The notes under the pieces: generated by a model
Databases searched by the model: none
Told to the model about the DNA's origin: nothing
What the model saw: the letters and a program-made list of their open reading frames with translations, nothing else
Virus record (IMG/VR): IMGVR_UViG_3300042453_004434
Span: 1-64,000 of that record
Direction: 5' to 3' (one strand)
DNA: 64,000 bases
Source: a virus
Made by a program: the position numbers and the translations under genes
Shown here: in pieces, positions 20,567 through 56,160 of the stretch
How the letters are laid out: each line of letters begins with the position of its first letter
How positions within the stretch are numbered: position 1 is the first letter of the stretch

Positions 20567-20583
20567 TTGGCACGATACTTGCT
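20567..20583 (+). promoter_or_regulatory. sigma54 consensus site (first of many)
   Basis: TTGGCACGATACTTGCT = TGGCAC-N5-TTGC. Confidence 0.7.
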
Positions 20584-20634
20584 CTCGACAGTGTGAACGC
20601 TGTCCAGGTCTGAAAAAAATCTGTGCAGAAGTTG

Positions 20635-20663
20635 TTGACGGATCGGCGTCCGTCCTGTAGGCT
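20635..20663 (+). promoter_or_regulatory. sigma70-type early promoter, repeated with variants before most cassette genes
   Basis: TTGACG-N17-TAGGCT, with the ATG 9 nt after the -10. Confidence 0.8.
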
Positions 20664-20672
20664 ATAGCCACA

Positions 20673-20798
20673 ATGAATCACGACAAGAGCCTCCTCGAAA
20701 AAGTCAACGACACCATCGTTATCTTCACCGTGACGGTCTTCTACTGCATCCCTTTCTTCGGCATGGGCTACGGTATCGGTACCGGAATCTTCGGCTGA
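20673..20798 (+). CDS. 41-aa single-TM peptide, copy 1
   Basis: MNHDKSLLEKVNDTIVIFTVTVFYCIPFFGMGYGIGTGIFG directly after the promoter; three copies. Confidence 0.75.
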   Translation: MNHDKSLLEKVNDTIVIFTVTVFYCIPFFGMGYGIGTGIFG

Positions 20799-20854
20799 AA
20801 CTCTGCACAGAAGTTGTTGACACCCTGAACTCCAACCTGTAAGCTGTAAGCACA

Positions 20855-21073
20855 ATGAAACACGAAATGACAGTGACTCTGAACAACATCCGCGTTGGCG
20901 ACATTATTCCTGCCGGTTCCTTTGGTATGGGATTCGATGACGTGACGGTTACCGAGATCGGTCCTGACGAGGACTATGGAAACACGATGCGGATCGTGGT
21001 TGTCGGCCCGAAGGGTCGGAGCATCTACTGCCGATCCTTCGGCGGTCGAGACATCACCGTGATCCGCAACTGA
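20855..21073 (+). CDS. small early protein (SH3-like beta barrel)
   Basis: own TTGACA-N17-TAAGCT promoter; 72 aa. Confidence 0.75.
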   Translation: MKHEMTVTLNNIRVGDIIPAGSFGMGFDDVTVTEIGPDEDYGNTMRIVVVGPKGRSIYCRSFGGRDITVIRN

Positions 21074-21117
21074 AAAGACCGGTTGACAAGGGTCAAATAC
21101 CTGATACCTTTTGACGC

Positions 21118-21276
21118 ATGAACAACGAATTGCTCGATCCTCAGTCTGAAGTCCAATCGCTCGCCGTTGTCTCAACGGAAGAGCTTCCCGGCTACGCGGA
21201 GTGGCTTGCCGAGTGTGAGGCTCAACTGGATCCCGATTGGATCTCAAGCTGGGCCAAACACTTGGGCGAATACTGA
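21118..21276 (+). CDS. 52-aa acidic peptide, paralog 1
   Basis: MNNELLDPQSEVQSLAVVSTEELPGYAEWLAECEAQLDPDWISSWAKHLGEY after a TTGACA promoter. Confidence 0.7.
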   Translation: MNNELLDPQSEVQSLAVVSTEELPGYAEWLAECEAQLDPDWISSWAKHLGEY

Positions 21277-21381
21277 AAACAATCTTCGTGCCAAGTGAAG
21301 CTTGGCATGAAACTTGTTTCCTGAAAAATCTGCACAGAAGTTGTTGACGGATCGGCGTCCGTCCTGTAGGCTATAGCCACA

Positions 21382-21507
21382 ATGAATCACGACAAGAGCC
21401 TCCTCGAAAAAGTCAGCGACACCATCGTTATCTTCACCGTGACGGTCTTCTACTGCATCCCTTTCTTCGGCATGGGCTACGGTATCGGCACCGGAATCTT
21501 CGGCTGA
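21382..21507 (+). CDS. 41-aa single-TM peptide, copy 2
   Basis: near-identical to 20673..20798 (N12S). Confidence 0.75.
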   Translation: MNHDKSLLEKVSDTIVIFTVTVFYCIPFFGMGYGIGTGIFG

Positions 21508-21563
21508 AACTCTGCACAGAAGTTGTTGACACCCTGAACTCCAACCTGTAAGCTGTAAGCACA

Positions 21564-21740
21564 ATGAATACGGAAAACGAAAACATGATCAAGGTTGACG
21601 GTGACATCGATGGTTGCGACATGATCGACATGCTCGAAGAACAAGACTATCGGAACATGAACTCTTCTGAAGCTTCCCCTTCTTACTTGTGGTGTCACGA
21701 TCAAGAGAAAGGTGAGCAGGAAGGTTTCTTCAAAAACTGA
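21564..21740 (+). CDS. 58-aa acidic peptide
   Basis: MNTENENMIKVDGDIDGCDMIDMLEEQDY...FFKN, behind a promoter identical to that of 20855. Confidence 0.7.
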   Translation: MNTENENMIKVDGDIDGCDMIDMLEEQDYRNMNSSEASPSYLWCHDQEKGEQEGFFKN

Positions 21741-21788
21741 ACGAAACTTGTTGACGGATCGGCATCCCTCCTGTAAGCTGTAGGCACA

Positions 21789-21944
21789 ATGAACAACGAA
21801 CTTCTCGATCCGCAGTCTGAAGTCCAATCGCTCGCCGTTGTCTCAACGGAGGAAATTGAGAGCAACGACAAGTGGTTTGCCGAGTGTGATGCAGAACGAG
21901 ACGAATGGGAGTGGGAAGATCTTCAGCAAATGGCCGAAGACTAA
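21789..21944 (+). CDS. 51-aa acidic peptide, paralog 2
   Basis: first 22 aa identical to the 21118 peptide; divergent, very acidic C-terminus. Confidence 0.7.
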   Translation: MNNELLDPQSEVQSLAVVSTEEIESNDKWFAECDAERDEWEWEDLQQMAED

Positions 21945-21988
21945 GAGCAACTCCCGTGCCAAGTGAAGCTTGGCATGAAACTTGCTGT

Positions 21989-22045
21989 GGGGCCCCTCCT
22001 TCTGTAAGTCCTTGATACTGAGGGACTTACAGAAGCGGAGGTCCC
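21989..22045. repeat. 57-bp palindromic core R1
   Basis: GGGGCCCC...GTAAGTCCTTGATACTGAGGGACTTAC...degenerate right box. Confidence 0.9.
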
Positions 22046-22162
22046 CTAGCAACTATCGTGCCAACACAGATTTTCCAGGCGATTGGCATGAAACTTGTTT
22101 CCTGAAAAATCTGCACAGAAGTTGTTGACGGATCGGCGTCCGTCCTGTAGGCTATAGCCACA

Positions 22163-22288
22163 ATGAATCACGACAAGAGCCTCCTCGAAAAAGTCAGCGA
22201 CACCATCGTTATCTTCACCGTGACGGTCTTCTACTGCATCCCTTTCTTCGGCATGGGCTACGGTATCGGCACCGGAATCTTCGGTTGA
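22163..22288 (+). CDS. 41-aa single-TM peptide, copy 3
   Basis: same peptide as copy 2, same promoter. Confidence 0.75.
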   Translation: MNHDKSLLEKVSDTIVIFTVTVFYCIPFFGMGYGIGTGIFG

Positions 22289-22328
22289 AAATCTCCTAAT
22301 AGCGGATCCTTGGCATGGGTCTTGCTAT

Positions 22329-22385
22329 GGGGCCCCTCCTTGCGTAAGTCCTTGATACTGAGAGACTTACAGAAGGTGGGGCCCC
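22329..22385. repeat. 57-bp palindromic core R2
   Basis: GGGGCCCC-N41-GGGGCCCC. Confidence 0.9.
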
Positions 22386-22547
22386 GTAGCAATCTTCGTG
22401 CCAACTTGATCTTGGCATGACTTCTGCTCCCCCAGCAACCTTCGTGCCAAGAGCTATTGTCCAGGCGATTGGCATGAAACTTGTTTCTAGAAAATCGTAT
22501 ACAGAAGTATTGACCAGGAACGAGCCGCCCTGTAGGCTAGGGCCACA

Positions 22548-22736
22548 ATGAAAACGCAGTACGTCACCTTCACCAACAAGTCTGGCAATCGCCTCACGAT
22601 CCCCACCCGCGTGTCCTTTTCCAAGTCTGGGCAGCCGCTCTCGGCTTACCCTCAAGATTTGAAGGCCGACGATATGTGGCACTACACGATGGCAGTTCAA
22701 TCTCAAATTGGATTTGTTACTGTTCGTTGGGGCTGA
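22548..22736 (+). CDS. small early protein
   Basis: ATG 9 nt after TTGACC-N17-TAGGCT. Confidence 0.7.
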   Translation: MKTQYVTFTNKSGNRLTIPTRVSFSKSGQPLSAYPQDLKADDMWHYTMAVQSQIGFVTVRWG

Positions 22737-22784
22737 TACTTAATTCTCTTTTAATAACAACATAACATAACAATACAACACAAT

Positions 22785-22997
22785 ATGGATAACGGTGTTA
22801 AATATCTTGTAAATGCAGATGACTTTGTTTCAACTCGTATTGCTTTGCAGAATGCGAAATTGAATATTGCAGAATTGATTGCGGTTTATCAATTAACTTC
22901 TCCAAGTTCAAATATCGATTCTCTCATTCGGCAGAAGAATGAATTGGATGCTTTGTTGAATAAACTTGATTATCATAATCTCAACTTGTCTCGTTAA
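22785..22997 (+). CDS. small helical protein, distant paralog of 25309 and 26338
   Basis: CA-rich leader; similar ELxxLLxKxxY C-terminus. Confidence 0.6.
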   Translation: MDNGVKYLVNADDFVSTRIALQNAKLNIAELIAVYQLTSPSSNIDSLIRQKNELDALLNKLDYHNLNLSR

Positions 22998-23173
22998 TAT
23001 ATATATGCATATCAATGTTAATTGCTTTGTTCGTTTTGATAATGAATGGTTTGTTGTTGAACAGATATGTTCAGAATCAATTCGAGTAAGAAATGTGGAT
23101 AATGGATGTTCAAATTGGGCATTTATATATGAAATTGATGAAGTTAAATATGTAAATTGAAATAATATATATA

Positions 23174-23291
23174 TACCAATTTGTATATATATGGTTCAGA
23201 TTTGAATCAATATAGTTCAGATTTGAATGAATATGATTCAAATTTGAATCAATTTGATTCCAATTTGCTCAATTATCGCTCAAATTTGTAA
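23174..23291. repeat. six phased 21-bp AT-rich repeats
   Basis: TTCA(G/A)ATTTGAAT-like units at 23174, 23195, 23216, 23237, 23258 and 23279. Confidence 0.75.
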
Positions 23292-23357
23292 ATAAATAGT
23301 TCAATTAAATAGAAAGCAAGAAACGTGCCAATCTGCACTTGGCATGACTCTTGCTAT

Positions 23358-23414
23358 GGGGCCCCACCTTACGTAAGTCGTTGATACTGAGGGACTTACA
23401 AAAAGAGGGGCCCC
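23358..23414. repeat. 57-bp palindromic core R3
   Basis: GGGGCCCC-N41-GGGGCCCC. Confidence 0.9.
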
Positions 23415-23520
23415 CCAGCAATGTTCGTGCCAAACTCAAAAAACCAGGTGATTTTTTCTGACGAAAATCTGCACAGAAGTTGTTGACGCATCGGCGTCCA
23501 TCCTGTAGGCTGTAGCCACA

Positions 23521-23697
23521 ATGAAACACGAAATGCAAATCAAGATCCTCTGGCACGTTCTCACTCTCAGCAAGCCCGGCTTCCTTTGGAAGTTCGAGTG
23601 CGAAGTCTCCGATGAGACGGAGGCTGAAGAAATCGCCCAGTACATCCGCGACACCACCACGAACGCCGGAGTGAAGGTTGTCGAAGTTTGGGTGTAA
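23521..23697 (+). CDS. 58-aa early protein
   Basis: MKHEMQIKILWHVLTLSKPGFLWKFECEVSDETEAEEIAQYIRD...; own promoter; first five codons shared with 20855. Confidence 0.7.
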   Translation: MKHEMQIKILWHVLTLSKPGFLWKFECEVSDETEAEEIAQYIRDTTTNAGVKVVEVWV

Positions 23698-23738
23698 ATA
23701 CTAGTTGACCATTGCTAATCTCTTGCTAATCTAATCCT

Positions 23739-24116
23739 ATGCGAAAATTACTTGCTATCCTGCTCGTCTCGTTCTCTGTCTCTGCTGCCGATCTCAACGC
23801 CTTTCTCGATGCTGTCGCGAAGGTCGAGAGCAGCAACAATCCGAAGGCCGTCAACAAGAAAGAAAGCGCTTTCGGCCTATACCAAATCCGCCCCGCGTAC
23901 TTCAAAGACTCGGGCGTGAAGGCAAAGCATGGCGACGTTTTCAAGCCTGACGTAGCCAAGAAGGTGGTGCTCGCCTACTTCCAGAAATATGAGCCCACTG
24001 CATTGAAAAACCTTGACTTTGAGACTCTCGCTCGTTGTCACAATGGTGGGTGTGGTTGGCGCAGGAACAAGTCAGCTACCAATGGCTACTGGCAGAAAGT
24101 GAAAAAGAATCTTTGA
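23739..24116 (+). CDS. secreted lysozyme-like protein (i-type/destabilase-like or lytic transglycosylase)
   Basis: signal peptide, AKVESS catalytic Glu, GLYQI, ARCHNGG. Confidence 0.75.
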   Translation: MRKLLAILLVSFSVSAADLNAFLDAVAKVESSNNPKAVNKKESAFGLYQIRPAYFKDSGVKAKHGDVFKPDVAKKVVLAYFQKYEPTALKNLDFETLARCHNGGCGWRRNKSATNGYWQKVKKNL

Positions 24117-24146
24117 CACCCACAAAAAATCTGATACCTTTTTCTT

Positions 24147-24356
24147 ATGTCAGACTTAAAATTGATTGCAAATCTATTGAATAAATATGGGCGCAATTTC
24201 TTTGCTAAGTGTCCCAGATATAAAACGGCAAAATATAAAAATGAATATGTGAGTCTAATCAGTTTCGATACTAATGATTTGTATTTTTATATAGAGAAGA
24301 TTGATAAAAGCAGAGATTGTGTGAAAGTTACTGAATTAAATGATTTTGGATTGTAA
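24147..24356 (+). CDS. hypothetical protein
   Basis: own TTGACA promoter just upstream. Confidence 0.6.
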   Translation: MSDLKLIANLLNKYGRNFFAKCPRYKTAKYKNEYVSLISFDTNDLYFYIEKIDKSRDCVKVTELNDFGL

Positions 24357-24358
24357 AT

Positions 24359-24625
24359 ATGATTGCAACAATTAAACAAAACAAAATAGGCCATTTGCAC
24401 GTTTGGTTTGGCGATGTAAATATCATCGAAGTCAGTAAATACAATTATCTTTCTAATGGTAAAGAAAGTGATTTATATATACAAAACAAAAAAGATATTG
24501 AATGTTTTTTAGATGATATAAATAGTGATGACGCCAAAATGATTTGTGATGGTTATACTGTAAAGACAGAAGTGTTTGATGAATACGCTGAAATGATAAA
24601 TAAAGCAATTTTCGTGCCAACCTAG
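24359..24625 (+). CDS. hypothetical protein; its last codons lie in the R4 flank
   Basis: 88-aa ORF ending in a sigma54-motif repeat (KAIFVPT*). Confidence 0.6.
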   Translation: MIATIKQNKIGHLHVWFGDVNIIEVSKYNYLSNGKESDLYIQNKKDIECFLDDINSDDAKMICDGYTVKTEVFDEYAEMINKAIFVPT

Positions 24626-24645
24626 ACTTGGCATGGGACTTGCTT

Positions 24646-24702
24646 GGGGCCCCTCCTTGCGTAAGTCGTTGATACTGAGGGACTTACAGAAGGTGGGGCC
24701 CC
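24646..24702. repeat. 57-bp palindromic core R4
   Basis: GGGGCCCC-N41-GGGGCCCC. Confidence 0.9.
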
Positions 24703-24861
24703 GTAGCAACTATAGTGCCAACATGATCTTGGCATGATTTTTGCCCCAGCAATCTTCGTGCCAACAGTGATTTTCCAGGCGATTGGCATGAAACTTGTTT
24801 CTGAAAATATCTGTGCAGAAGTATTGACCAGGAACCAGCCTTCCGATAGGCTATAGCCACA

Positions 24862-25083
24862 ATGAAGGCCACAATGAATACAAACAACTATCCGTCAGTT
24901 ACGATCACTTTCTGCGAAACCCAAATCGAAGTTTGGTATCGCGTTTCTCTTTCTAACAATGTTTTCATCATGGAGATGAAACCAGTTGATAATGTTTCAA
25001 TAGAAGATTGGGATTGGATTTGTTCTCGGGCAAAGCATTATGAACAAATCGAAGAGTTGATTGCATTTGAAATTAACAATTAA
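24862..25083 (+). CDS. small early protein, paralog of 26052
   Basis: NNYPSVTITFCETQIEVWYRVSLS shared with 26052. Confidence 0.75.
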   Translation: MKATMNTNNYPSVTITFCETQIEVWYRVSLSNNVFIMEMKPVDNVSIEDWDWICSRAKHYEQIEELIAFEINN

Positions 25084-25097
25084 TAATAATAACACAT

Positions 25098-25250
25098 ATG
25101 GACAACAATATTGAAATTGGATTGGCGCAGATTGAAGTTGAGGAAGTGATTACTGAAGATTCAAATCCGACTTGGCCTGATGACAGCAACAACAACATGG
25201 ATCAATATCTAAGTTTGGAAGCGGCAACTGAAATCATGTTTCCTTTCTAA
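25098..25250 (+). CDS. 50-aa acidic peptide ending in FPF
   Basis: MDNNIEIGLAQIEVEEVITEDSNPTWPDDSNNNMDQYLSLEAATEIMFPF; CA-rich leader. Confidence 0.6.
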   Translation: MDNNIEIGLAQIEVEEVITEDSNPTWPDDSNNNMDQYLSLEAATEIMFPF

Positions 25251-25308
25251 TGTACATTTTACTAATCATCTGCATTGTCATTGTACTAATAAATAAAACA
25301 AACAACAT

Positions 25309-25533
25309 ATGAGTGAACATAAATACGCTTTTAACTATGTAATCGATCCGCGCAAATTGATTAGTTTGCACGTTGCGGTTGAACTTCTAATTGTCAGGCT
25401 GGAAGAGCAGATTAAGAAAGAAGAATTGAGTAATGAGTCTTACTTTTCTAAATATAAACAAGAATTGGAGCAATTACTAATTGATACTGACTATTCCAAT
25501 TTGAAATATGCTAATACGACAAATGTAAACTAA
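25309..25533 (+). CDS. small protein, paralog of 26338
   Basis: MSEHK...LHVA...SKYK.EL.QLL shared with 26338. Confidence 0.75.
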   Translation: MSEHKYAFNYVIDPRKLISLHVAVELLIVRLEEQIKKEELSNESYFSKYKQELEQLLIDTDYSNLKYANTTNVN

Positions 25534-25583
25534 TAACCTGAGCAGGAACCGTGCCAACTGAGGGTTGGCATGGAACTTGCTGT

Positions 25584-25640
25584 GGGGCCCCACCTTGCGT
25601 AAGTCCTTGATACTGAGGGACTTACAGAAGCGGGGGTCCC
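25584..25640. repeat. 57-bp palindromic core R5
   Basis: GGGGCCCC-N41-GGGGTCCC. Confidence 0.9.
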
Positions 25641-25817
25641 CAAAAAAATCAAGAGGTTTTTTTCGGTATTTTCCAGGTACTTGGCATGACTTCTGCTCCC
25701 CCAGCAATCTTCGTGCCAACAGCGATTGTCCAGGCGATTGGCATGAAACTTGTTTCCTGAAAAATCTGTCTGGAAGATGTTGACGGATCGGCGTCCATCA
25801 TGTAGGCTATAGCCACA

Positions 25818-26027
25818 ATGAAGGACGACATGAGTACAGAACACATCAGAGTTACAGACTACGAAATCGACGACGACGGCGCACTATACGTCACCGAGGC
25901 GTTCGACAGCAACGCCAACCGTCTTCTGAACTGGAACGAGATTCGTGATCTCAATGCCAATGTTGAGTTTATGGAAAACTTCAGCGAACAGCGCGTCGCA
26001 TTTTACGACGAAGAATACAACGCCTAA
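25818..26027 (+). CDS. small acidic early protein
   Basis: ATG 9 nt after TTGACG-N17-TAGGCT. Confidence 0.7.
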   Translation: MKDDMSTEHIRVTDYEIDDDGALYVTEAFDSNANRLLNWNEIRDLNANVEFMENFSEQRVAFYDEEYNA

Positions 26028-26051
26028 CAATTAACAATAACAACACACACA

Positions 26052-26270
26052 ATGAATAGAAATAACTATCCTTCAGTAATAATAACTTTCTGCGAAACTG
26101 AGCTTCAAGTTTGGTATCGCGTTTCTCTCTCCAAGGGCATTTGCATCATGGATATGGAAGCTCTTGACAAGAACATCTCCAAAGAAGATTGGAATTGGAT
26201 TTGTTCTGAAATCAAACATCATGAACAGATCGAACAAATAGTGGCTGATATTGTTAATAACGAATACTAA
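26052..26270 (+). CDS. small early protein, paralog of 24862
   Basis: clear sequence similarity to 24862. Confidence 0.75.
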   Translation: MNRNNYPSVIITFCETELQVWYRVSLSKGICIMDMEALDKNISKEDWNWICSEIKHHEQIEQIVADIVNNEY

Positions 26271-26337
26271 TACAATATAAAATTTTTAATTATCCTTTTG
26301 CTTCTTGCTTTTTTAATTCATACTAAATAAACAACAT

Positions 26338-26559
26338 ATGAGCGAACATAAACATTACTATAAATATATAATCAATCCTCCCGAGTTGGTTGCTTTGCAC
26401 GTTGCGGCTGAAATGTTAATTTCTAAACTTGATCAGCAAATAAAAGATCAAGAATTGGATAATAATTCTTTTGCTTCTAAATATAAATCAGAATTGCAAC
26501 AATTGCTAAACAAGACTCACTATTGCAATTTGGAACGCATCAATGCAAATGTAGATTAA
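26338..26559 (+). CDS. small protein, paralog of 25309
   Basis: clear sequence similarity to 25309. Confidence 0.75.
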   Translation: MSEHKHYYKYIINPPELVALHVAAEMLISKLDQQIKDQELDNNSFASKYKSELQQLLNKTHYCNLERINANVD

Positions 26560-26609
26560 TAAACTGAGCAAGACCCGTGCCAACCTGGACTTGGCACGAA
26601 ACTTGCTGT

Positions 26610-26666
26610 GGGGCCCCTCCTTGTGTAAGTCGTTGATAATCAAGGACTTACAAAAAGGGGGGCCCC
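26610..26666. repeat. 57-bp palindromic core R6
   Basis: centre GTAAGTCGTTGATAATCAAGGACTTAC holds two perfect WATCAANNNNTTR sites. Confidence 0.9.
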
Positions 26667-26807
26667 AAAAAAATCAAGAAATTTTTTTCGGTATTTTCCA
26701 GGCGCTTGGCACGGCTTCTGCTCCCCAGCAAGAGTCATGCCAACATCACAAAAAAGAAAAATGCAAAAAAAGCTTGTTGCCTCCCTTGTCAAGCCTAAGA
26801 TACTCGC

Positions 26808-26993
26808 ATGATTCATAACTGGATTCCCCGCAGCCTTCGATGGTCTGCTGACGAACGAAAACAGAAAGAAACGCAAGCTCGAAACGCTCGCGAAAACGCA
26901 AGGAAAATCTGGCTGGAAAAGGAAAAAACCAGGCAGCAAATTGAGCGCGAAATCTTGCAAAAAGTCCTTGCACGTCGGGCGCTCCTCGACTAG
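26808..26993 (+). CDS. small basic helical protein
   Basis: 61-aa ORF with a promoter-like upstream sequence. Confidence 0.55.
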   Translation: MIHNWIPRSLRWSADERKQKETQARNARENARKIWLEKEKTRQQIEREILQKVLARRALLD

Positions 26994-27005
26994 TCTCTTC
27001 TCAAC

Positions 27006-27635
27006 ATGAAACTTGCACAAGCGATTGAATACGTGGGCGGATTTTCCGCTCCCTCAAAAATGCCCTGTCATGGGTTCAGCATCCCGGCGCGGTATTGCAA
27101 AACGGGGCAGAAGCTCCGTGAAGTTGCTGGTAGCATCTGCTCTAAGTGCTACGCTCTGAAGGGACGATACGGTTTCCCGAACGTGCAGAACGCGCTCGAA
27201 AGGCGCTTCGCCAACCTGAAAAACGATCTGTGGGTTCAGGCCATGACGATTGCGATCCGGGGAACCGAGTCAAGCGGTTTCTTCAGGTGGCATGATTCCG
27301 GCGACATCCAAGATGTCGCGCATCTTGACAAAATCGTGCAGGTTGCTCGCAACCTGCCGGAAATCAAGTTCTGGCTGCCGACTCGGGAGTACGGTGTCGT
27401 TTCGGAATGGGTCAAGGCAAATGGTGCGTTGCCTGAAAATCTGACGATCAGGCTTTCGGCTCTGATGTTGGAAGGTCAACCTCCGGTTGGAATCGCCAAC
27501 CGATTGGGTTTGACAACCTCGGGAGTTTCAAAGACGGGTTTCACTTGTCCGTCTTCGGCTCAGGGGAACAAGTGCCTGACTTGTCGGGCCTGTTGGGACA
27601 AGTCCGTCCAAAACGTCAACTACAAAACTCACTGA
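27006..27635 (+). CDS. GP88-like protein (Cys-rich, radical-SAM-like phage family)
   Basis: SKMPC...C...CSKCYA, FRWHDSGD, FWLPTRE, C-terminal CP...CLTCRACWD. Confidence 0.8.
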   Translation: MKLAQAIEYVGGFSAPSKMPCHGFSIPARYCKTGQKLREVAGSICSKCYALKGRYGFPNVQNALERRFANLKNDLWVQAMTIAIRGTESSGFFRWHDSGDIQDVAHLDKIVQVARNLPEIKFWLPTREYGVVSEWVKANGALPENLTIRLSALMLEGQPPVGIANRLGLTTSGVSKTGFTCPSSAQGNKCLTCRACWDKSVQNVNYKTH

Positions 27636-27695
27636 AAAAATGTTGTTTCTGGTCTTGACGGTGGCGTTGCTTCTGGTAATCTGTTCTCAACAAAA

Positions 27696-27881
27696 ATGAA
27701 ATACGAATTGATTGTTGAAACCGAAGCCTGCACGTCTTTCTTTACTTTCCCGCACAATCGCGAAGGTTCAACGGCAGCTTTTGAAAAACTTGGATCCTTC
27801 ATCACAAAGGATGAGTTTAGATCCGCAAAAATCGTGAGCAATCGCGACAATGTGATTTTCGAGTTTCCTTCTAAAAACTAA
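27696..27881 (+). CDS. hypothetical protein
   Basis: own TTGACG-N17-TAATCT promoter. Confidence 0.6.
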   Translation: MKYELIVETEACTSFFTFPHNREGSTAAFEKLGSFITKDEFRSAKIVSNRDNVIFEFPSKN

Positions 27882-27895
27882 ACAAACAACATATC

Positions 27896-28141
27896 ATGCA
27901 CACAATTAAAAAGTACATTGCACCGTTTGAAGTTATCAATTATACTCGCGAAGACGGCAATCAAGCTGTATATAAAGTTTTCCGTCTTTCAAAGCATCTT
28001 TTTCGTAATAAAAAGAAAGACGAAAATAGAATTGTCGGTTTCAAAGCCTGGAAATTGGCAAATACCGGCGCAAATCAAAAAGCAGGTTGGCGCAGTTTTC
28101 GATTTGATCGAATTAATGAAATTGAGCTTGCTTTCTTTTAA
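27896..28141 (+). CDS. WYL-like/SH3-fold small protein
   Basis: INYTREDG...GWRSFRFDRI. Confidence 0.65.
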   Translation: MHTIKKYIAPFEVINYTREDGNQAVYKVFRLSKHLFRNKKKDENRIVGFKAWKLANTGANQKAGWRSFRFDRINEIELAFF

Positions 28142-28329
28142 TATAATTTTGTTGGAAAAAAGACGATAAAGCAATGGCATGGTGTGCAAGGAGATCTTGC
28201 AACGGGATTGTGTTATGGCCTATTGAAACACCATTGCTTTTTTAATTAAAAAAAATTAAAATAAATTAATAAATAAAAATAGCGCGAGCAATTTTCATGC
28301 CAACCGGCACTTGGCACGGCAATTGCTGT

Positions 28330-28386
28330 GGGGCCCCACCTTTTGTAAGTCGTTGATATTCAAGGACTTACGCAAGGAGGGGCCCC
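28330..28386. repeat. 57-bp palindromic core R7
   Basis: GGGGCCCC-N41-GGGGCCCC, followed by an extra IHF-like palindrome. Confidence 0.9.
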
Positions 28387-28569
28387 ATGCGTAAACCCTT
28401 GATAATCAAGGGGTTACAAAAGCTAAAACTCCAGGTTAACGGTAACTATCGAACTATTTATCTATTTATATATCACTATTTAGCTATTTGTATTTAACTA
28501 TTTAGCGATCACTATTTAAGTATTTAAATAAAAAACCCTCAATTTTTTAGATTGAGGGCGATTGTTTAT

Positions 28570-28767
28570 TTATTTAACTGGATTTTTTGTATAACTTACA
28601 TCAATTACTTCTTCAATTATAGTAAAGCTATCTTTTTCAGCATCAAAATCATCATTATGAACTAACCAATTATGAATATCAATAGGATCTAATTTAACAT
28701 CAGATTTGAAATGATACCCAATAGTTGGGCCGTTGCGATATTCAACAATAGCAATTTGTTTGTTCAT
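28570..28767 (-). CDS. hypothetical protein
   Basis: likely start MNKQI at 28767; terminator-like hairpin downstream. Confidence 0.55.
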   Translation of the reverse strand: MNKQIAIVEYRNGPTIGYHFKSDVKLDPIDIHNWLVHNDDFDAEKDSFTIIEEVIDVSYTKNPVK

Positions 28768-28768
28768 A

Positions 28769-29023
28769 TTAGTAGAAGAAGATGCGCGACTCGTCAGGAA
28801 AGGTAACAGGAAGAGTGTCGCGGTCAACACCAAATGTGGTTCCAGGCGTCACATCAGACTTGGACAAATATCCAAATCCTTTGTAATTACCCGTCTGCAT
28901 GAGAAGATCTCCCACGAAATACTGTAGAGCTATTCGCTGATCCGCAAAGTCATTCTTGCTGTTCTGGAAGAATCGGTTTGCTTGTTCTCTGATGTTCTCA
29001 ACTGGAATGGTTTTTCGTTTCAT
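28769..29023 (-). CDS. hypothetical phage protein
   Basis: 84 aa, LMQTGNYKGFGYL. Confidence 0.65.
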   Translation of the reverse strand: MKRKTIPVENIREQANRFFQNSKNDFADQRIALQYFVGDLLMQTGNYKGFGYLSKSDVTPGTTFGVDRDTLPVTFPDESRIFFY

Positions 29024-29177
29024 ACAAATAATTTTTTACCTTGTACCGTCAACGCTGAGACTGAATCTACTGGAACACCGCGCCTTGTAAAGGATTTTTT
29101 ATTGGAATCGTACTCTAAAACGCCCCCATAAAATCCTACAGGAGACTTGACAGTCCAACCGACAACGTATCCGTTGT

Positions 29178-29540
29178 TCAGCGTGACTTGCGTGAGGTGG
29201 AGCGAACCAACTTTTTTGTCTTTTTTCCACTTGCCACCTTCTTCAACTTCGACTTGGTGGTTGTCTTCTTCTTGGTAGCGGAAACGGATTTTTTGCATAG
29301 ATTTTTTGTTTGATTTTCTTCTTGCTTTTTCTTTTTGGCAAACTCGCCGTAGTGATATGCTCGACCGCGAAGTCCTAGCTTTTGCTGATCTTCTGTGATG
29401 AAGCCACGACGAATCTCCCACTTTTTAAAAGCGTCGTCAATCATTTTATATGTGCCATCTGGAAGGTCTAAAGAATAGATGCCATCCATGCTGACATCAT
29501 ATCTGTTTGTAATACGCGATTTAAATTGACTATCACTCAT
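29178..29540 (-). CDS. basic protein with a Lys-rich histone-H1-like tail
   Basis: likely start MSDSQ; C-terminus KKSVSATKKKTTTKSKLKKVASGKKTKK. Confidence 0.55.
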   Translation of the reverse strand: MSDSQFKSRITNRYDVSMDGIYSLDLPDGTYKMIDDAFKKWEIRRGFITEDQQKLGLRGRAYHYGEFAKKKKQEENQTKNLCKKSVSATKKKTTTKSKLKKVASGKKTKKLVRSTSRKSR

Positions 29541-29675
29541 TGTATGTAAATCCCTTGTAGAAAAAATAAATACCAATACAAATTAATAAACAAAGCAAAA
29601 ACATTATCTACTTATTCTTTTGTTGATAGATTGTGATTAATAATGCGCAAACAATAATAAACAATAAATACATAA

Positions 29676-29867
29676 TTAAACAGGAGGAAGAACTTGCTCA
29701 AACTCTATTGCGCGTCCACTCAGATCACGAATGAGTTCACGGGACACAGTATCAAGAGTCTTGCGCCCAGTCAACTGAATAAATATGGCTTCCTGCGCTT
29801 TGTCGATGAACTTCTCGCGGGGAACACCATAGATGTGCTGAACATAGTACTTAATTTTAGTCTGCAT
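29676..29867 (-). CDS. hypothetical protein
   Basis: 63-aa ORF with a CA-rich leader. Confidence 0.6.
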   Translation of the reverse strand: MQTKIKYYVQHIYGVPREKFIDKAQEAIFIQLTGRKTLDTVSRELIRDLSGRAIEFEQVLPPV

Positions 29868-29947
29868 TTTTATTCCTTTTGTATTGTTTTTTACTTGGTA
29901 TTGTTTTTGTTGGAGGCGGAAGAGGCTTTCTAATTTTCTTAAATATC

Positions 29948-30454
29948 TCAGATTGTGATGGCAACTTTTTCATTTAATTTATCCCAAATAATGTATTGCT
30001 TACAATACTTGCAATAGTAATTTCTTTTACCAGATTGAATTGCGTTATGCTTGTATGTAGTTAGATAAATCTTTTTATCGCACTTGCAAGAATAAACATG
30101 ATCTGTTTTTACTTCAAAGTCGTGGCAACGAGTTGCCGATTGGCCGATAACTTGCATAACTTTCTTCCATTCGGCACCATGTGAAGAAATGAACATACCA
30201 TAAACTTGTCGCGAAATTAAATGTGCAGCTTCGTGACCCGGAGTATCATCAATAAATGCTTGTCCATTCTGAATTAAAAGAACATTGTTCAATCGAATTA
30301 GATTATGATGGTAATAAGCAACACCAGCACGGCGACCGCCCAAATTAAACTCAACAGTAGGAAATGGAAACTTTGCATTATAAACTGATTCGCAAATTGA
30401 ATATACGTTTTGTATTCTAACTAAGCAAGCGTTTTGTAATTCAGTTACATTCAT
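29948..30454 (-). CDS. SprT-like zinc metalloprotease
   Basis: RRAGVAY, HEAAH, HGAEWK, YSCKC...CKYC; likely start MNVTE. Confidence 0.9.
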   Translation of the reverse strand: MNVTELQNACLVRIQNVYSICESVYNAKFPFPTVEFNLGGRRAGVAYYHHNLIRLNNVLLIQNGQAFIDDTPGHEAAHLISRQVYGMFISSHGAEWKKVMQVIGQSATRCHDFEVKTDHVYSCKCDKKIYLTTYKHNAIQSGKRNYYCKYCKQYIIWDKLNEKVAITI

Positions 30455-30611
30455 CGCAATCAAAGTATCACCTTGTACTGCAAGGCACAAGGGATTTTTG
30501 TCGCCTGAACAACTTTTTTTTGAGGCACTTGGCACGAAACTTGTTGTTGACAACCTGGAGTTTCTTCAGAGAGAAACCAACGTAAGTCGTTGTCTTTCAA
30601 CGACTTGCGTT

Positions 30612-30668
30612 GGGGCCCCTCTTTGCGTAAGTCGTTGATATTCAAGGACTTACAAAAGGTGGGGCCCC
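30612..30668. repeat. 57-bp palindromic core R8
   Basis: GGGGCCCC-N41-GGGGCCCC, preceded by an extra palindrome. Confidence 0.9.
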
Positions 30669-30892
30669 AAAAAAATCAAGAGATTTTTTTTGGTATTCTC
30701 CAGGTAGTTGGCACGGTTTATGCTCCCAGCAATGGGAATGCCAAATCATAGTTGGCATGAAAATTGATTTCTTGACCAGGATTTTTTTTGGTGAAGCAAA
30801 AATATCTGAGAAAAGTTGTTGTAGCCGCATAGGAAATCGTACACACTGTACCCGCAGTTCGATTCAACAACTAACCAAAAGGAAAACACAGT

Positions 30893-31924
30893 ATGCCAGC
30901 AAACATTGAAAATCGTGACGTTCAGGCCGGACTTGAGATGGCTTGGCACGGTATGACCAAGATCGTTCCCGTCATCAACTTCGCTGACGCCTTTCCATTT
31001 GAAATTGAAAAGCGTCAACTGGTTGACAGCGAGGACGGCACCCCAATCGAAGGAGAGTATTACTTTCGCAGCACTGACGACAAGAAGAAGATCGGCAAGA
31101 CCCTTCCTGATTCTTATGTCGCAATCTCAAACGCTCGTTTTTGGGAAATCGTGCAGAACGCGGTTGGTGGCACTGGCGCCGTCATCGAATCCGCTGGAAC
31201 GGTTTTCGACCGTTGCCGCCGATTCGTGACTGTCAAACTCCAGACCGATCTTGATACGTTCAAGGTGGGTGATCGTGAGTTCAAGAATCGATTCTCCCTG
31301 CTGGACAGCATCGACCAGAGCACGAATCTGTACGGCGTGAACAGCAGCACCTGCGTCGTCTGCTCGAATACCTTCGCGATGGCGATGGGCGACAGGTCCG
31401 GCGAGTTCCGTTTCAAGCTGCGGCACTCGAAGAATCTTGTGCCCAAGATCGAGAACATGGAGAAGGCCATCGATCAGTTCATCGGTGTCACCGCCCAGTT
31501 CCAGCAGGCGATGAAGATCGCGAATGAGATCCCGGTCAAGCTGGATCAGGCTCGTCCGCTCTTTGCTGGTTGGATCGCTGAAGAGACCAATGGGCTATCC
31601 ACTCGTTCATTCAACACTGTCGGGCGTTTGACCGAGTTGTTCACTCGGGGTGCTGGAAATCGCGGCGAGACCCTGCTCGACGCTTTCAGCGCGGTGACTG
31701 ACTTCTATTCGCACGAATCGAGCGGCGGTCAGGATCAACCGGGGTTCCGAATGAAGCAGACCATCTCCAGCGACTTTGGCGCAGCGTCCAAGCGAAAGCA
31801 GGACTTCTTCGGCCAGATCTTCGACGTGGATAAGGAAGTGACGTTCAATCGGGATCGGTTCACCAATCTGGTCAGCAACGGTCGCAACCTCATCAGCGCG
31901 ATGGAAGCGGTTACCGCGAACTGA
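30893..31924 (+). CDS. DUF932 (phage/plasmid TIGR03299-like) protein
   Basis: AWHG, Y..ISN, IESAG, VVCSNT, RHS, AVTDFYSH; GC-rich codons. Confidence 0.8.
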   Translation: MPANIENRDVQAGLEMAWHGMTKIVPVINFADAFPFEIEKRQLVDSEDGTPIEGEYYFRSTDDKKKIGKTLPDSYVAISNARFWEIVQNAVGGTGAVIESAGTVFDRCRRFVTVKLQTDLDTFKVGDREFKNRFSLLDSIDQSTNLYGVNSSTCVVCSNTFAMAMGDRSGEFRFKLRHSKNLVPKIENMEKAIDQFIGVTAQFQQAMKIANEIPVKLDQARPLFAGWIAEETNGLSTRSFNTVGRLTELFTRGAGNRGETLLDAFSAVTDFYSHESSGGQDQPGFRMKQTISSDFGAASKRKQDFFGQIFDVDKEVTFNRDRFTNLVSNGRNLISAMEAVTAN

Positions 31925-31938
31925 ACCAGTCAAGCAAG

Positions 31939-31967
31939 AATCCTCCCGCAAGGGAGGATTTTTTTTT
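31939..31967 (+). terminator. intrinsic terminator
   Basis: AATCCTCCC-GCAA-GGGAGGATT plus T-tract. Confidence 0.9.
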
Positions 31968-32054
31968 GCGGTTGGCACGTCTTTTACGCTTGACAACCTG
32001 GAGATGCTCCTGGGAAAACCCAACGTAAGTCGTTGTCTTCCAACGAGTTACGTT

Positions 32055-32111
32055 GGGGCCCCTCCTTACGTAAGTCGTTGATATTCAAGGACTTACAAAA
32101 GGTGGGGCCCC
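32055..32111. repeat. 57-bp palindromic core R9
   Basis: GGGGCCCC-N41-GGGGCCCC with extra palindromes on both sides. Confidence 0.9.
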
Positions 32112-32409
32112 ATCGTAAGTCCTTGATAATCAAGGGTTTACAAAAGCACTTTTTCAATTTTATCGATAAAGTGACATTATAAGTCAAACTACTTTTTAAT
32201 ATATATATAGTTTATATTTATACTTATTTAATACTTATTTGTTTATTTATTACTAGCTTATATAGTTATATTTGTATATATGTTATTTGACTATGTATTA
32301 TTTGCCTATATATAGATCAGTTATTTGGAAAAAAATCATTCAGCTATAAAAGAAAAAACCTACCAGGTTTTACCCTGATAGGTTTCACACACGGTTTTTA
32401 GTTGATTAT

Positions 32410-55527: not shown

Positions 55528-56160
55528 ATGAATATGGAAACTCGTCAATGTAAAAAGTGCAAATCTTTCAAAAATTTAACTGAAGAATTTTGGATGTTAA
55601 GAAAATCTAGATTTGGATATAAATGTAGAAAATGCGAAAACCAAGATTGTAAAAACTATCATTTTAAAAATCACGATAAAATATTAAAAAGATTAAAAGA
55701 TTATAAAAATAATCATCAAAAAGAAATTCAAGATTATCGAGATAAAAATAAATTAAAAATGAAAGAATATAGATTAAAAAATAAACAATATTTTCGAGAA
55801 TATTTTAAGAATAGACAAAGAAAAAAAAGATTAGATCCTATTTACAAATTACATAGTAATATATCTAGAGGTATCAATCATCACTTAAAAGGAGCTTGTA
55901 TAAAAAAGAATAAAAGTTGGTTAAAATATGTTGATTTTACTTTAGAACAATTAAAACTACATTTAGAATCTAAATTTTCAGATGGAATGAATTGGGAAAA
56001 TTATGGCAAATGGCATATAGACCATATAAAACCCAAATCATTGTTTAAAATAAATAGCCCAGAAAGTATTGAATTTAAAAAATGTTGGTCACTTGATAAT
56101 TTACAACCTCTCTGGGCTATTGATAATATATTAAAAAGTAACAATTATACCGAAAATTGA
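55528..56160 (+). CDS. HNH endonuclease
   Basis: GMNWENYGKWHIDHIKP...NLQPLWAIDNILKSN; N-terminal CxxC pairs. Confidence 0.88.
   Translation: MNMETRQCKKCKSFKNLTEEFWMLRKSRFGYKCRKCENQDCKNYHFKNHDKILKRLKDYKNNHQKEIQDYRDKNKLKMKEYRLKNKQYFREYFKNRQRKKRLDPIYKLHSNISRGINHHLKGACIKKNKSWLKYVDFTLEQLKLHLESKFSDGMNWENYGKWHIDHIKPKSLFKINSPESIEFKKCWSLDNLQPLWAIDNILKSNNYTEN

Follow-up and report, generated by a model that had tools for sequence, protein, structure and literature searches.

Repeated sigma-54-type sites at gene cassette boundaries of an uncultured lake phage

Sigma-54-type sites and the boundary module

The 64-kb stretch of DNA analysed here (the window), from an uncultured lake phage, carries a cluster of sequences resembling the recognition site of bacterial sigma-54. 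Exact matches to TGGCAYNNNNNTTGC number 23, against a mean of 0.29 in 100 dinucleotide-preserving shuffles of the window, none of which attained 23 (maximum 3). The original prediction had listed these TGGCAY-N5-TTGC sites, and all 23 are present (9 on the plus strand, 14 on the minus), although its minus-strand coordinates are 1 base low for 13 of 14 sites (21947 being exact). They are confined to nt 20568–30743, with none in the remaining ~52 kb. When one mismatch is allowed, 17 further sites appear, 14 of them within nt 21279–31987 and three beyond the island (39813, 45885, 57219). The island spans ~12 kb (about 20.5–32.2 kb), is composed of small gene cassettes, and is richer in G+C than the phage (29% G+C). 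The 23 sites do not represent 23 independent events: a small number of module types, present in paralogous copies, account for them.

The sites form parts of one repeated boundary module. Its first site points back into the gene before the module, and a forward-facing site follows exactly 24 nt later. After this dyad come a very stable 57-nt hairpin with an IHF-consensus core and a site facing back into the hairpin. Four modules have an additional, closely spaced face-to-face pair, and most carry a weakened, co-directional one-mismatch site (TTGT for TTGC) 26 nt before the TTGAC box. The module ends with the cassette's own TTGAC-N17-TAnnnT element, 9 nt before the ATG. The back-to-back and face-to-face pairing described earlier is real: in each of the eight back-to-back pairs of the window the two sites start exactly 24 nt apart, and the gap in face-to-face pairs is either 62–63 nt, with the 57-nt hairpin between, or 4–7 nt.

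The island opens with a lone exact plus-strand site (nt 20568–20582), which has the orientation of the first cassette, precedes the TTGAC box of that cassette by 52 nt and is kept in relatives L001, L002 and L003. It is followed by a back-to-back dyad without a hairpin (nt 21279–21317), in which both sites have the TTGT mismatch (minus, 21279–21293; plus, 21303–21317). A full module occupies nt 21947–22098, with a minus site (21947–21961), a plus site (21971–21985), the hairpin (21989–22046), a second minus site (22049–22063) and a one-mismatch plus site (22084–22098). The next (nt 22311–22484) has a plus site (22311–22325), hairpin (22329–22385), minus site (22389–22403), a short face-to-face pair (22413–22427, one mismatch, with 22435–22449) and a one-mismatch plus site (22470–22484). 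At nt 23316–23432, a dyad (minus, 23316–23330; plus, 23340–23354) precedes the hairpin (23358–23414) and a minus site (23418–23432). The module at nt 24605–24798 comprises a dyad (minus, 24605–24619; plus, 24629–24643), of which the minus site overlaps the final codons of the ORF at 24359–24625, the hairpin (24646–24702), a minus site (24706–24720), a face-to-face pair separated by 4 nt (24730–24744 with 24749–24763) and a one-mismatch plus site (24784–24798).

In the module at nt 25542–25753 (family D13), the dyad (minus, 25542–25556, one mismatch; plus, 25566–25580) and hairpin (25584–25641) are followed by an A-run/T-run hairpin, a face-to-face pair (25682–25696, one mismatch, with 25704–25718) and a one-mismatch plus site (25739–25753). 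That at nt 26568–26742 has a dyad (minus, 26568–26582; plus, 26592–26606), hairpin (26610–26666) and face-to-face pair (26707–26721, one mismatch, with 26728–26742). The module closing the rightward block (nt 28288–28422) has a dyad (minus, 28288–28302; plus, 28312–28326), the hairpin (28330–28386) and a second hairpin (about 28388–28422) with twin IHF-consensus sites. Between the leftward block and the DUF932 gene lies a module (nt 30530–30767, family D11) with a one-mismatch plus site (30530–30544), two hairpins (about 30578–30610, and 30612–30668), a one-mismatch plus site (30709–30723) facing an exact minus site (30729–30743), and a further one-mismatch plus site (30753–30767). The terminal module (nt 31973–32145, also family D11) has a one-mismatch plus site (31973–31987), a hairpin, the hairpin at 32055–32111, and a further hairpin with IHF-consensus sites at 32116 and 32128.

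The recurrent hairpin has the form GGGGCCCC...GGGGCCCC (57–58 nt) and occurs nine times in the window, starting at nt 21989, 22329, 23358, 24646, 25584, 26610, 28330, 30612 and 32055. All nine copies contain an IHF-consensus match read on the minus strand, and most are without a T-run. Folding energies are -30 to -40 kcal/mol, with z-scores of -7.4 and -8.4 for two copies. By arithmetic on the coordinates, the IHF-type centre lies ~82–93 nt upstream of the predicted starts of the outward-facing sites, which is a usual geometry for sigma-54 promoters.

Cassette genes and exchange at the modules

The rightward array (nt 20673–28141, plus strand) consists of small cassette genes encoding 41–209 aa, among them genes for an SLT-domain protein (23739–24116) and a GP88-family protein (27006–27635). 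The leftward block (nt 28570–30553, minus strand) includes a gene for a SprT-like protein (29948–30553), and the DUF932 gene (30893–31924, plus strand) is situated between the last two modules. The cassette element TTGAC-N17-TA(G/A)GCT is exemplified at nt 20635–20663 (plus strand), ending 9 nt before the ATG, and other copies start at 20817, 21344, 21526, 21751, 22125, 22510, 23483, 24824 and 25780. It corresponds to repeat family D3 (8 copies), and plus-strand pattern matches number 14. This element probably acts as a promoter, with leaderless mRNA. The earlier claim that adjacent genes have their own sigma-70 promoters is supported in form by the repeated element, but a generic sigma-70 scan shows no enrichment (26 found, 22.6 expected) because the -10 hexamer of the cassette element is non-consensus.

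In synteny comparisons with relatives, 9 of 28 block ends lie not more than 6 nt from a module edge, compared to 2.5 expected. The blocks of L001 and L002 stop at nt 21316, at the edge of the dyad at 21279–21317, and that of L004 stops at 26567, next to the module at 26568–26742. Relatives exchange cassettes at the modules. The 12-kb island is best explained as an array of early-type gene cassettes split by a repeated, recombining boundary module; such a cassette boundary, made of these sites and resembling the PeSL (promoter-early stem-loop) type, is absent from the original prediction.

Sequence and conservation of the sites

The extended sigma-54 consensus is Y-TGGCAC-G-r-NNN-TTGC-W. At positions that were not part of the search, the window sites have T before TGGCA in 23/23 cases, G after it in 21/23, a purine next in 21/23, and T after TTGC in 22/23. 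Among 130 unique palindromes from other viral contigs, Y is found in 110, R in 86 and 94, and W in 111 and 105. These counts support a match to the sigma-54 recognition sequence that includes the flanking positions, which the original prediction had ignored. Of the 23 sites, 18 have a counterpart in relatives; in these, changes between related phages amount to 2/180 in the core, 9/72 in the spacer and 42/684 in the flanks. This supports purifying selection at the -24/-12 positions, and the earlier observation of a variable N5 between conserved -24 and -12 elements is correct.

Complementarity between the spacers of paired sites is at chance level (149/520; 35/85 when the conserved G is counted). 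Across phages the spacing varies from 5 to 9 nt in the dyad and from 3 to 9 nt in face-to-face pairs, and direct (non-inverted) runs of 3–5 sites occur. Since orientation and spacing differ among phages and direct runs exist, the evidence supports sites that act as independent asymmetric units, neither hairpin arms nor a fixed dyad.

Distribution in other phages and bacteria

A similar layout is present in many unrelated phages. Searches recovered the back-to-back dyad from 29 viral stretches, whereas 596 Gb of bacterial genomes yielded just 4 stretches with it; face-to-face pairs occur in at least 120 viral stretches. All four dyad-holding MAGs encode rpoN, and on one bacterial contig the dyad separates divergent genes and lies 2.4 kb from rpoN. 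Contigs bearing the 16–17-nt asymmetric motif span 0.30–0.68 in G+C, and the phages concerned use unrelated terminases (Terminase_6N, Terminase_3) and unrelated modes of replication. In other loci, orientation relative to genes is near random (28 head-on, 34 co-directional; 142 toward, 114 away). IHF-consensus matches up to 150 nt from the sites are in 4-fold excess in 147 other loci (26, compared to 1 in the reversed control). A literature search found no description of such sigma-54-type site arrays in phages.

An absence of enhancer-binding ATPases from the window had been predicted, and this holds for the ORFs and proteins scanned, i.e. 70 non-island ORFs (best 25 of 37 families) and selected proteins; the scan covers the window of a genome that extends more than 45 kb beyond it. 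The sole AAA+ protein found (nt 56145–57074, minus strand) was rejected as an activator, being a RuvB-like AAA protein with a winged helix and no GAFTGA motif. No activator gene was detected at E≤0.001 in 38 site-bearing viral records, sub-threshold matches aside, and searches of 5 and 39 records for a phage-encoded sigma-54 DNA-binding domain gave 0/5 and 0/39 above cut-off. BLASTP, at a sensitivity that remote homologues could escape, found no protein family common to more than 8 of 14 site-bearing genomes, a result in favour of recognition of the sites by a conserved host factor; the most widely shared families were DNA polymerase A, TerL, SNF2 helicase and portal. WhiB was found in 0/43 site-bearing records, a set distinct from the whole genome of the window phage, and to our knowledge Actinobacteria are without sigma-54. 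One auxiliary gene has its nearest bacterial cluster in Pseudomonadota, a weak lead to the host.

Possible functions of the sites

The leading reading, held tentatively on sequence comparisons (probability roughly 0.4), is that sigma-54 polymerase of the host docks at these sites in an inactive state, and that they serve as a boundary or decoy. Host sigma-54 RNA polymerase would bind the sites and IHF would bend the hairpin DNA. The polymerase would mostly sit in an inactive closed complex, because most sites point into the hairpin or the end of the preceding gene, close pairs would be mutually exclusive, the genes carry predicted promoters of their own, and a search of the window revealed no activator gene. 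The module might thereby form a nucleoprotein boundary between cassettes, and 23–40 sites per genome, multiplied by many genome copies, could drain the small sigma-54 pool of the host. Some outward-facing sites may additionally fire under an active host activator. The abstract of PMC4591121 describes sigma-54 holoenzyme binding DNA in a transcriptionally inactive state. The docking reading is favoured by the site excess, consensus flanks, selection, chance-level spacer pairing and IHF enrichment, and likewise by the virus-specific layout, the absence of a phage activator or sigma-54 domain in the records searched, near-random orientation and cassette swapping at modules. Against it, a decoy would also trap core polymerase required by the phage's own promoters, the outward-facing sites have canonical promoter geometry (IHF centre at about -82 to -93), and the sites are missing from three cultured relatives of one array-bearing contig.

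It is possible, if rather unlikely, that the sites function as sigma-54 promoters that depend on an activator. Each boundary would then fire in both directions with the help of enhancer-binding proteins of the host: outward-facing sites would transcribe the next cassette, in tandem with the sigma-70-type promoter, and produce antisense RNA over the previous one, and inward-facing sites would yield short hairpin RNAs. The complete consensus match agrees with this, as does the bacterial contig with the dyad near rpoN. Real promoters are also fitted by the IHF geometry of the outward-facing sites and by the position of face-to-face pairs in other viruses, where, among 45 that are clearly intergenic, 20 lie between divergent genes; in complete genomes such as G039, G026 and G032, clusters occur at the strand-switch point. 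The original interpretation is supported in part, by the consensus match, selection, the behaviour of the sites as independent units and the lack of an activator among the window proteins scanned, but its statement that the sites are not positioned as gene promoters was too strong: the site at 20568 and the TTGT copies are co-directional with genes, and the outward-facing sites have the IHF geometry. Most exact sites nevertheless aim at the hairpin or the 3' end of the preceding gene, which speaks against promoter function. Further points against it are that no activator gene was found in the window or, at E≤0.001, in 38 site-bearing viral records, that the gene-proximal copy has lost the -12 GC, and that the cassettes have predicted promoters of their own, as G039 cassettes likewise do. 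Face-to-face sites 3–7 nt apart could probably not both hold polymerase, and the dense arrays of other phages, with 8–14 sites in 200–700 bp, surpass any promoter need.

Less probable still is recognition of the sites by a phage-encoded protein, or by some host protein that is not sigma-54, the likeness to the sigma-54 consensus being coincidence or mimicry; candidate roles are a 'stoperator'-type repressor, a cassette recombinase, and a terminase or replication protein. The virus-specific layout and the recombination at modules would suit such a binder, as would the large terminase gene located within 2.5 kb of 31 of 88 dense arrays in other phages, an array situated within 150 bp of the end of a protein-primed podovirus-like contig, and GP88-family genes near arrays in six loci as well as in the window island. 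However, the same motif, degenerate flanks included, recurs across the wide G+C range, terminases and replication modes given above, no protein family common to more than 8 of 14 genomes emerged from the BLASTP comparison, and the varying dyad and face-to-face spacings do not suit one dimeric binder.

It is very doubtful that no sequence-specific protein is involved and that the inverted repeats matter only as DNA cruciforms, as RNA hairpins (terminators, processing or stability elements) or as recombination homology. The hairpin forms a very stable structure, folding is also seen in dyads and close pairs (z of -4.2 and -4.8), and modules are recombination junctions. Nevertheless, four spacer positions are unpaired, with complementarity at chance, the flanking motif is invariant, and a purine at the same motif position in both half-sites gives a mismatch in any hairpin. 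Direct runs of the motif exist, and homology alone would not fix 11–12 positions while the spacer drifts.

A packaging or replication signal (a cos/pac-like terminase site or an origin, analogous to lambda cosB) is scarcely credible in the window. Other phages with complete genomes have a single cluster of sites each, which often lies at an end of the contig, the terminase proximity of 31/88 arrays makes a packaging-related role possible in those phages, and the L018 array contains two DnaA-box matches. The window sites, by contrast, are scattered across 12 kb at 11 different boundaries, with TerL (nt 7186–9051) 11 kb away. The 5.2-fold DnaA-box enrichment near arrays is matched by a reversed control (4.1-fold), and one recognition site would not be common to unrelated terminases.

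Comparison with known systems

Bacterial enhancer-dependent sigma-54 (RpoN) promoters with IHF include glnAp2, nifH and pspA. The window sites share their -24/-12 sequence and flanking preferences, with an IHF-type site nearby, and one bacterial contig has a true divergent pair with this dyad. They differ in that the search revealed neither an activator gene nor a recognisable enhancer, the majority do not precede genes, pairs would be mutually exclusive, arrays are dense, and the dyad is almost absent from bacteria. In cluster A mycobacteriophages, stoperators are recognised by a repressor that the phage itself encodes, and they are oriented with transcription. They too are many short asymmetric sites in intergenic gaps, thought to affect passing polymerases and not to be promoters; the window sites, however, occur in both orientations and have no known phage binder. 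Lambda cosB has several asymmetric R sites and IHF sites. The mixed orientation around an IHF bend is similar, and arrays of other phages often lie beside terminase genes, but the window sites are dispersed, far from the terminase gene, and their motif is common to phages with unrelated terminases.

Non-productive and intragenic sigma-54 sites of E. coli, as presented in the abstract of Bonocora et al. 2015 (PMC4591121), are similar in that the holoenzyme would be bound inactive at sites that are not classical promoters; those are single and chromosomal, whereas the window sites are clustered, paired and phage-borne. PeSL cassettes of T4-type phages consist, according to the abstract of Arbiol et al. 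2010 (PMC2839356), only of a sigma-70-like promoter and a terminator stem-loop. In both systems, short cassettes recur between the genes of a plastic region rich in small, dispensable genes, with a stem-loop and a strong early-type promoter per unit, and in both the copies recombine and shuffle genes among related phages. The window stem-loop differs in having an IHF-consensus core, mostly no T-run, and 2–6 flanking sigma-54-type sites, and the window cassette promoter in its non-consensus -10 hexamer, 9 nt from the ATG. By analogy, the module appears comparable in role to the PeSL cassettes of T4-type phages.

A cassette island with repeated boundaries

The window has a G+C content of 25–35% over most of its length, rising to 37–47% between 20 and 32 kb, where an island of small gene cassettes is found (about 20.5–32.2 kb). 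The large terminase gene (TerL) lies at nt 7186–9051, four to five tRNA genes are found at 52.7–55.0 kb, and glycosyltransferases are numerous. A search of the window against Rfam returned tRNAs only, all of them outside the island. Neither the island nor one copy of the repeated boundary between its cassettes (the module) gave a DNA match among 50,697 phage records, and the identity of TerL to cultured phages reaches about 26% at most, so this phage has no close cultured relative. The island was present in at least 21 lake-water DNA sequencing runs, and no RNA run carrying it was among the matches listed. In a protein atlas, the bacterial cluster closest to one auxiliary gene is from Pseudomonadota, a weak lead to the host.

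Sigma-54-type sites

The site TGGCAYNNNNNTTGC occurs 23 times in the window, against a shuffled expectation of 0.29 (none of 100 shuffles reached 23), and all 23 exact copies fall within nt 20568–30743. Allowing one mismatch adds 17 more, 14 of them at nt 21279–31987. Both the exact and the near-exact copies announced in the original prediction are thus present, 13 of its 14 minus-strand coordinates being one base low. The sites carry GG at -24 and GC at -12, a fixed distance apart (TGGCAC-N5-TTGC). The extended sigma-54 consensus, with a pyrimidine before TGGCA, a G and then a purine after it, and A or T after TTGC, is also matched: TGGCA is preceded by T in 23 of 23 sites, TGGCAY is followed by G in 21 and then by a purine in 21, and T follows TTGC in 22, while the four middle spacer positions vary freely. 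The same trend at the extended positions is repeated in 130 palindromes of other viruses. Judged by sequence, the window sites are perfect sigma-54 promoter cores, and the likeness reaches past the letters that were searched for.

Counterparts of 18 of the 23 sites are found in relatives about 90% identical to the window (loci L001–L004, on related viral contigs). Among these 18, changes affect 2 of 180 core positions (ten per site) and 1 of 54 extended positions (three per site), compared with 9 of 72 spacer positions (four per site) and 42 of 684 flanking positions, so that selection holds the core, in line with the earlier proposal.

Anatomy of the module

The sites are components of a composite repeat, the full form of which begins after the stop codon of a unit's last gene. 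First comes a minus-strand site pointing back into the preceding gene, followed exactly 24 nt on by a plus-strand site, the two making up a back-to-back pair or dyad (8 of 8 dyads have this distance). Next is a hairpin of 57–58 nt with GGGGCCCC on both sides, and then a minus-strand site aimed at the hairpin. Four modules continue with a close, face-to-face pair of sites (4–7 nt between the TTGC and GCAA elements), and most carry a plus-strand copy in which TTGT replaces TTGC. A conserved element, TTGAC-N17-TA(G/A)GCT, lies 26 nt further on and ends 9 nt before the next ATG. There are 11 boundaries in total, nine of which have the hairpin. It folds at -30 to -40 kcal/mol (two copies have z-scores of -7.4 and -8.4), and most copies have no T-run. 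All nine hairpin copies match the IHF consensus WATCAANNNNTTR, of which there are 14 matches in the island against 12 in the other, far more A+T-rich, 52 kb.

A near-identical gene for a 41-aa hydrophobic peptide is present in three copies (nt 20673–20798, 21382–21507 and 22163–22288), each lying in a 245-nt repeat (family D2; 98% and 80% identity) and preceded by the same promoter element. Short A+T-rich tandem repeats are found directly before two modules (nt 23179–23304 and 28447–28525), one a 21-nt unit repeated five times, the other an irregular 8/14-nt periodic repeat of the TATTTA type.

As the TTGAC-N17-TA(G/A)GCT element is conserved before the cassette genes, every cassette has its own putative promoter element. 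A generic sigma-70 scan of the island was not enriched (26 matches vs 22.6 expected) because the -10 hexamer is non-consensus, and the case for cassette promoters rests for that reason on the conserved repeat. The sigma-70 promoters originally predicted for these genes are therefore recognisable as a conserved element, but not by a generic scan. Its conservation and position imply cassette promoters and, probably, leaderless or nearly leaderless mRNAs. The promoter family D3 (nt 20635–25808), which ends 9 nt before the ATG, has no Shine-Dalgarno sequence; the A+T-rich genes of the island have AACA-rich leaders instead of this family.

Distribution among viruses

The layout of these sites is a wide and virus-specific phenomenon. 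The dyad pattern was found in 29 IMG/VR stretches, three of them relatives of the window and the rest ranging from 0.30 to 0.67 in G+C, but 596 Gb of bacterial and archaeal genomes yielded only four such stretches, each on a short MAG contig. One of these four, at nt 5631–5668 of a Vulcanimicrobiota MAG contig (L033), is situated between two divergent bacterial genes with rpoN 2.4 kb away (sigma-54 DNA-binding domain, nt 8022–8480), and has the appearance of a normal pair of divergent bacterial sigma-54 promoters. The face-to-face pattern was found in at least 120 viral stretches, and 88 of 147 site-bearing loci have four or more sites within 700 bp. Among 13 near-complete viral genomes, 11 have their sites in one cluster of 2–14 and two have one or more outliers, while a reversed-pattern control over the same 13 gave one match in all. 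Several of these clusters sit where gene direction switches, and the cluster of one complete genome (G039) lies upstream of a strong sigma-70 promoter. The IHF consensus is 4-fold enriched within 150 nt of sites in other loci (26 near vs 90 far; reversed control, 1 near vs 34 far).

Some individual loci deserve description. A small contig (L017, nt 1–220) has five sigma-54-type sites in its terminal 150 bp and encodes a protein-primed DNA polymerase that shares 69% identity with the enzyme of Pectobacterium phage DU_PP_III (Astrithrvirus). Of three related genomes from cultured members of this genus, none has an exact site and one has a single one-mismatch site, so the array is not a feature of the whole group. 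In L018, two adjacent DnaA-box matches (nt 4125–4145) lie inside an 11-site array. A general link to DnaA boxes was dismissed, as their enrichment near arrays was matched by the reversed control, and such words may reflect base composition. The island encodes a cysteine-rich protein of the GP88 family (PF17338; nt 27006–27635), and proteins of this family occur within 2.5 kb of arrays in six other loci (including L016, L074, L082, L095 and L105). Two contigs related to the window (L007 and L009) stop directly behind the first dyad, their last 60 bases passing into a long run of C, which may reflect a break in assembly at the repeat or a physical end of the DNA.

Two possible readings: inactive docking or promoters

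The reading we prefer, with a probability of roughly 40%, is that the sites would be places where host sigma-54 polymerase docks without being activated, serving as a boundary, a decoy or both. Most exact sites aim at the hairpin or at the 3' end of the preceding gene, the arrays reach 14 sites, which is beyond any promoter need, and the members of close pairs would exclude each other. Each cassette, in addition, has a promoter element of its own. The sites point in nearly random directions with respect to genes (28 head-on vs 34 co-directional; 142 toward vs 114 away), although these counts come from crude ORF calls that are unreliable in G+C-rich loci, where 62 of 117 pairs fall 'inside' a called ORF.

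No phage activator was found either. The window proteins scanned include no Sigma54_activat/GAFTGA activator, as the original prediction had stated, and at E ≤ 0.001 the Sigma54_activat model matched none of 38 viral records with such sites, of which 13 have a completeness of 90% or more. One of five further large records gave a single sub-threshold stretch (E 0.0095); the model also matches ordinary AAA+ proteins, with hits in all 14 control genomes, archaea included. A single P-loop AAA+ protein was seen among those of the window (309 aa; nt 56145–57074, minus strand). It combines an ATPase with a DNA-binding domain, being a RuvB-like AAA+ domain with a C-terminal winged helix; having no GAFTGA motif, it is not a classical sigma-54 activator.

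Working sigma-54 promoters are a possible but rather doubtful explanation. The IHF-type hairpin is centred about 82–93 nt upstream of the predicted starts of the outward-facing sites, which would suit real promoters, as would the divergent genes that flank 20 of the 45 pairs in other viruses that are clearly intergenic. In the window, the site at nt 20568 and the one-mismatch TTGT copies are upstream of genes and co-oriented with them, which also speaks for promoters; they are the only ones so placed. The activator that such promoters need was found neither in the window proteins scanned nor, at E ≤ 0.001, in the 38 viral records. The original prediction, that the sites are not positioned as gene promoters, holds for the majority of exact sites, which face the hairpin or the end of the preceding gene, but not for site 20568 and the TTGT copies. 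More generally, it is supported in part: it was right about sigma-54 sequence identity and non-classical placement, while its sponge and insulator roles are still hypothetical, and it missed the context of cassette boundaries.

Which factor reads the sites

Site-bearing phages have unrelated terminases and, in one case, protein-primed replication. Given this diversity, a binder supplied by each phage is not expected to keep one recognition sequence, whereas a conserved host factor would do so, and sigma-54 is the known factor whose site has exactly this asymmetric form in two parts. Two weak tests agree with this: rpoN is present in 4 of 4 MAGs with the dyad, and WhiB, a frequent actinophage marker, was found in none of 43 site-bearing viral records. 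To our knowledge Actinobacteria have no sigma-54, and with an actinobacterial host the sigma-54 reading would fail.

That a binder other than sigma-54 reads the sites is unlikely. A single motif spans phages as dissimilar as those just described, and no protein family was common to more than 8 of 14 genomes (13 complete site-bearing genomes and the window) at BLASTP sensitivity, the most shared being DNA polymerase A, TerL, SNF2 helicase and portal. A phage-encoded sigma-54 DNA-binding domain was likewise not found above the cut-off in sets of five and 39 viral records; one sub-threshold match (E 0.0028) lay in a frame with two stops.

Still less probable is a role in structure or recombination only. 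If the sites were hairpin arms, their spacers should pair. Inverted sites do fold (z of -4.2 for a dyad and -4.8 for a close pair), leaving the spacer as a 4x4 internal loop, but on other viral contigs the spacers of 130 unique palindromes of the face-to-face type are complementary at chance level (149 of 520 positions). In the window, N5 complementarity is 35 of 85, about one position in five of these being a conserved G/C. These figures led us to reject the hairpin-arm reading. In the first two spacer columns of the 130 palindromes complementarity falls short of chance, since a purine is preferred there in each half-site. Runs of three to five copies of the motif in one direction are found as well, and spacing across phages varies (5–9 nt in dyads, 3–9 nt in face-to-face pairs). 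Chance complementarity, direct runs and variable spacing together indicate that the unit is one asymmetric protein site in two parts; it is neither a stem nor a dyad of fixed form for a dimer to bind.

A packaging or origin signal is very improbable for the window, and a cos/pac terminase array or origin was rejected, because the sites are dispersed over 11 boundaries and 12 kb and lie 11 kb or more from TerL; in other phages, TerL is within 2.5 kb of 31 of 88 dense arrays and many arrays are at contig ends, and a packaging or replication role is possible there.

Implications for phage-host interaction

Among bacterial sigma factors, sigma-54 alone combines tight binding to DNA with silence until an ATPase activates it. 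Its use by phages is, as far as we know, almost unstudied, and no description of sigma-54 site arrays in phages was found in the part of the literature covered by full-text searches. Should host sigma-54 polymerase bind these sites, one option is that phages take over the host by means of DNA decoys, with no protein of their own required. In the other, phages of many kinds would have their early regions coupled to the enhancer-binding proteins of the host and, through these, to its physiology. Both options would be novel. A broader version of the docking reading, which we hold to be doubtful, is that many unrelated phages carry such arrays as a protein-free, DNA-encoded weapon or handle. During replication these would soak up scarce host sigma-54, with IHF shaping the complex, and silence programmes of stress response, repair, motility or defence; in the present phage they would also be insulators between exchangeable early-gene cassettes. 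The motif could, moreover, serve as a marker of host range, since it should be absent from phages whose hosts are bacteria without rpoN.

Cassette exchange and comparison with known systems

Three viral contigs (carrying loci L001–L004) are about 89–93% identical to the window and differ from it in cassette order and copy number. Nine of 28 unique ends of synteny blocks in the island fall within 6 nt of where a site or hairpin begins or ends, whereas 2.5 would be expected (binomial P about 5e-4), although two pairs of ends are near-duplicates and the independent count is nearer 7.

In integron arrays an IntI integrase lies alongside, the cassettes lack promoters, and the attC sites have GTTRRRY as their core. 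An array of this kind was rejected for the window, where no integrase family was found among the proteins scanned, the cassettes have their own promoter element, and the repeat has no GTTRRRY core.

A closer likeness is to the promoter-early stem-loop cassettes (PeSLs) of T4-type phages, for which gene shuffling by recombination between cassette copies is described (PMC2839356). To that extent the two are alike: in the window, too, a cassette recurs between the small genes of a plastic region (repeat families D1–D8, D11 and D13), and cassette order and number are shuffled among its relatives, with block ends at module edges. The strong early sigma-70-like promoter of the PeSL may have a counterpart in the conserved TTGAC-N17-TA(G/A)GCT element, where the generic scan is not enriched (26 vs 22.6), and the terminating stem-loop may have one in the very stable hairpin, most copies of which are without a T-run. 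The module would work like a PeSL, so that regulatory cassettes of this mobile kind would also exist in an uncultured phage of lakes that has no close cultured relative.
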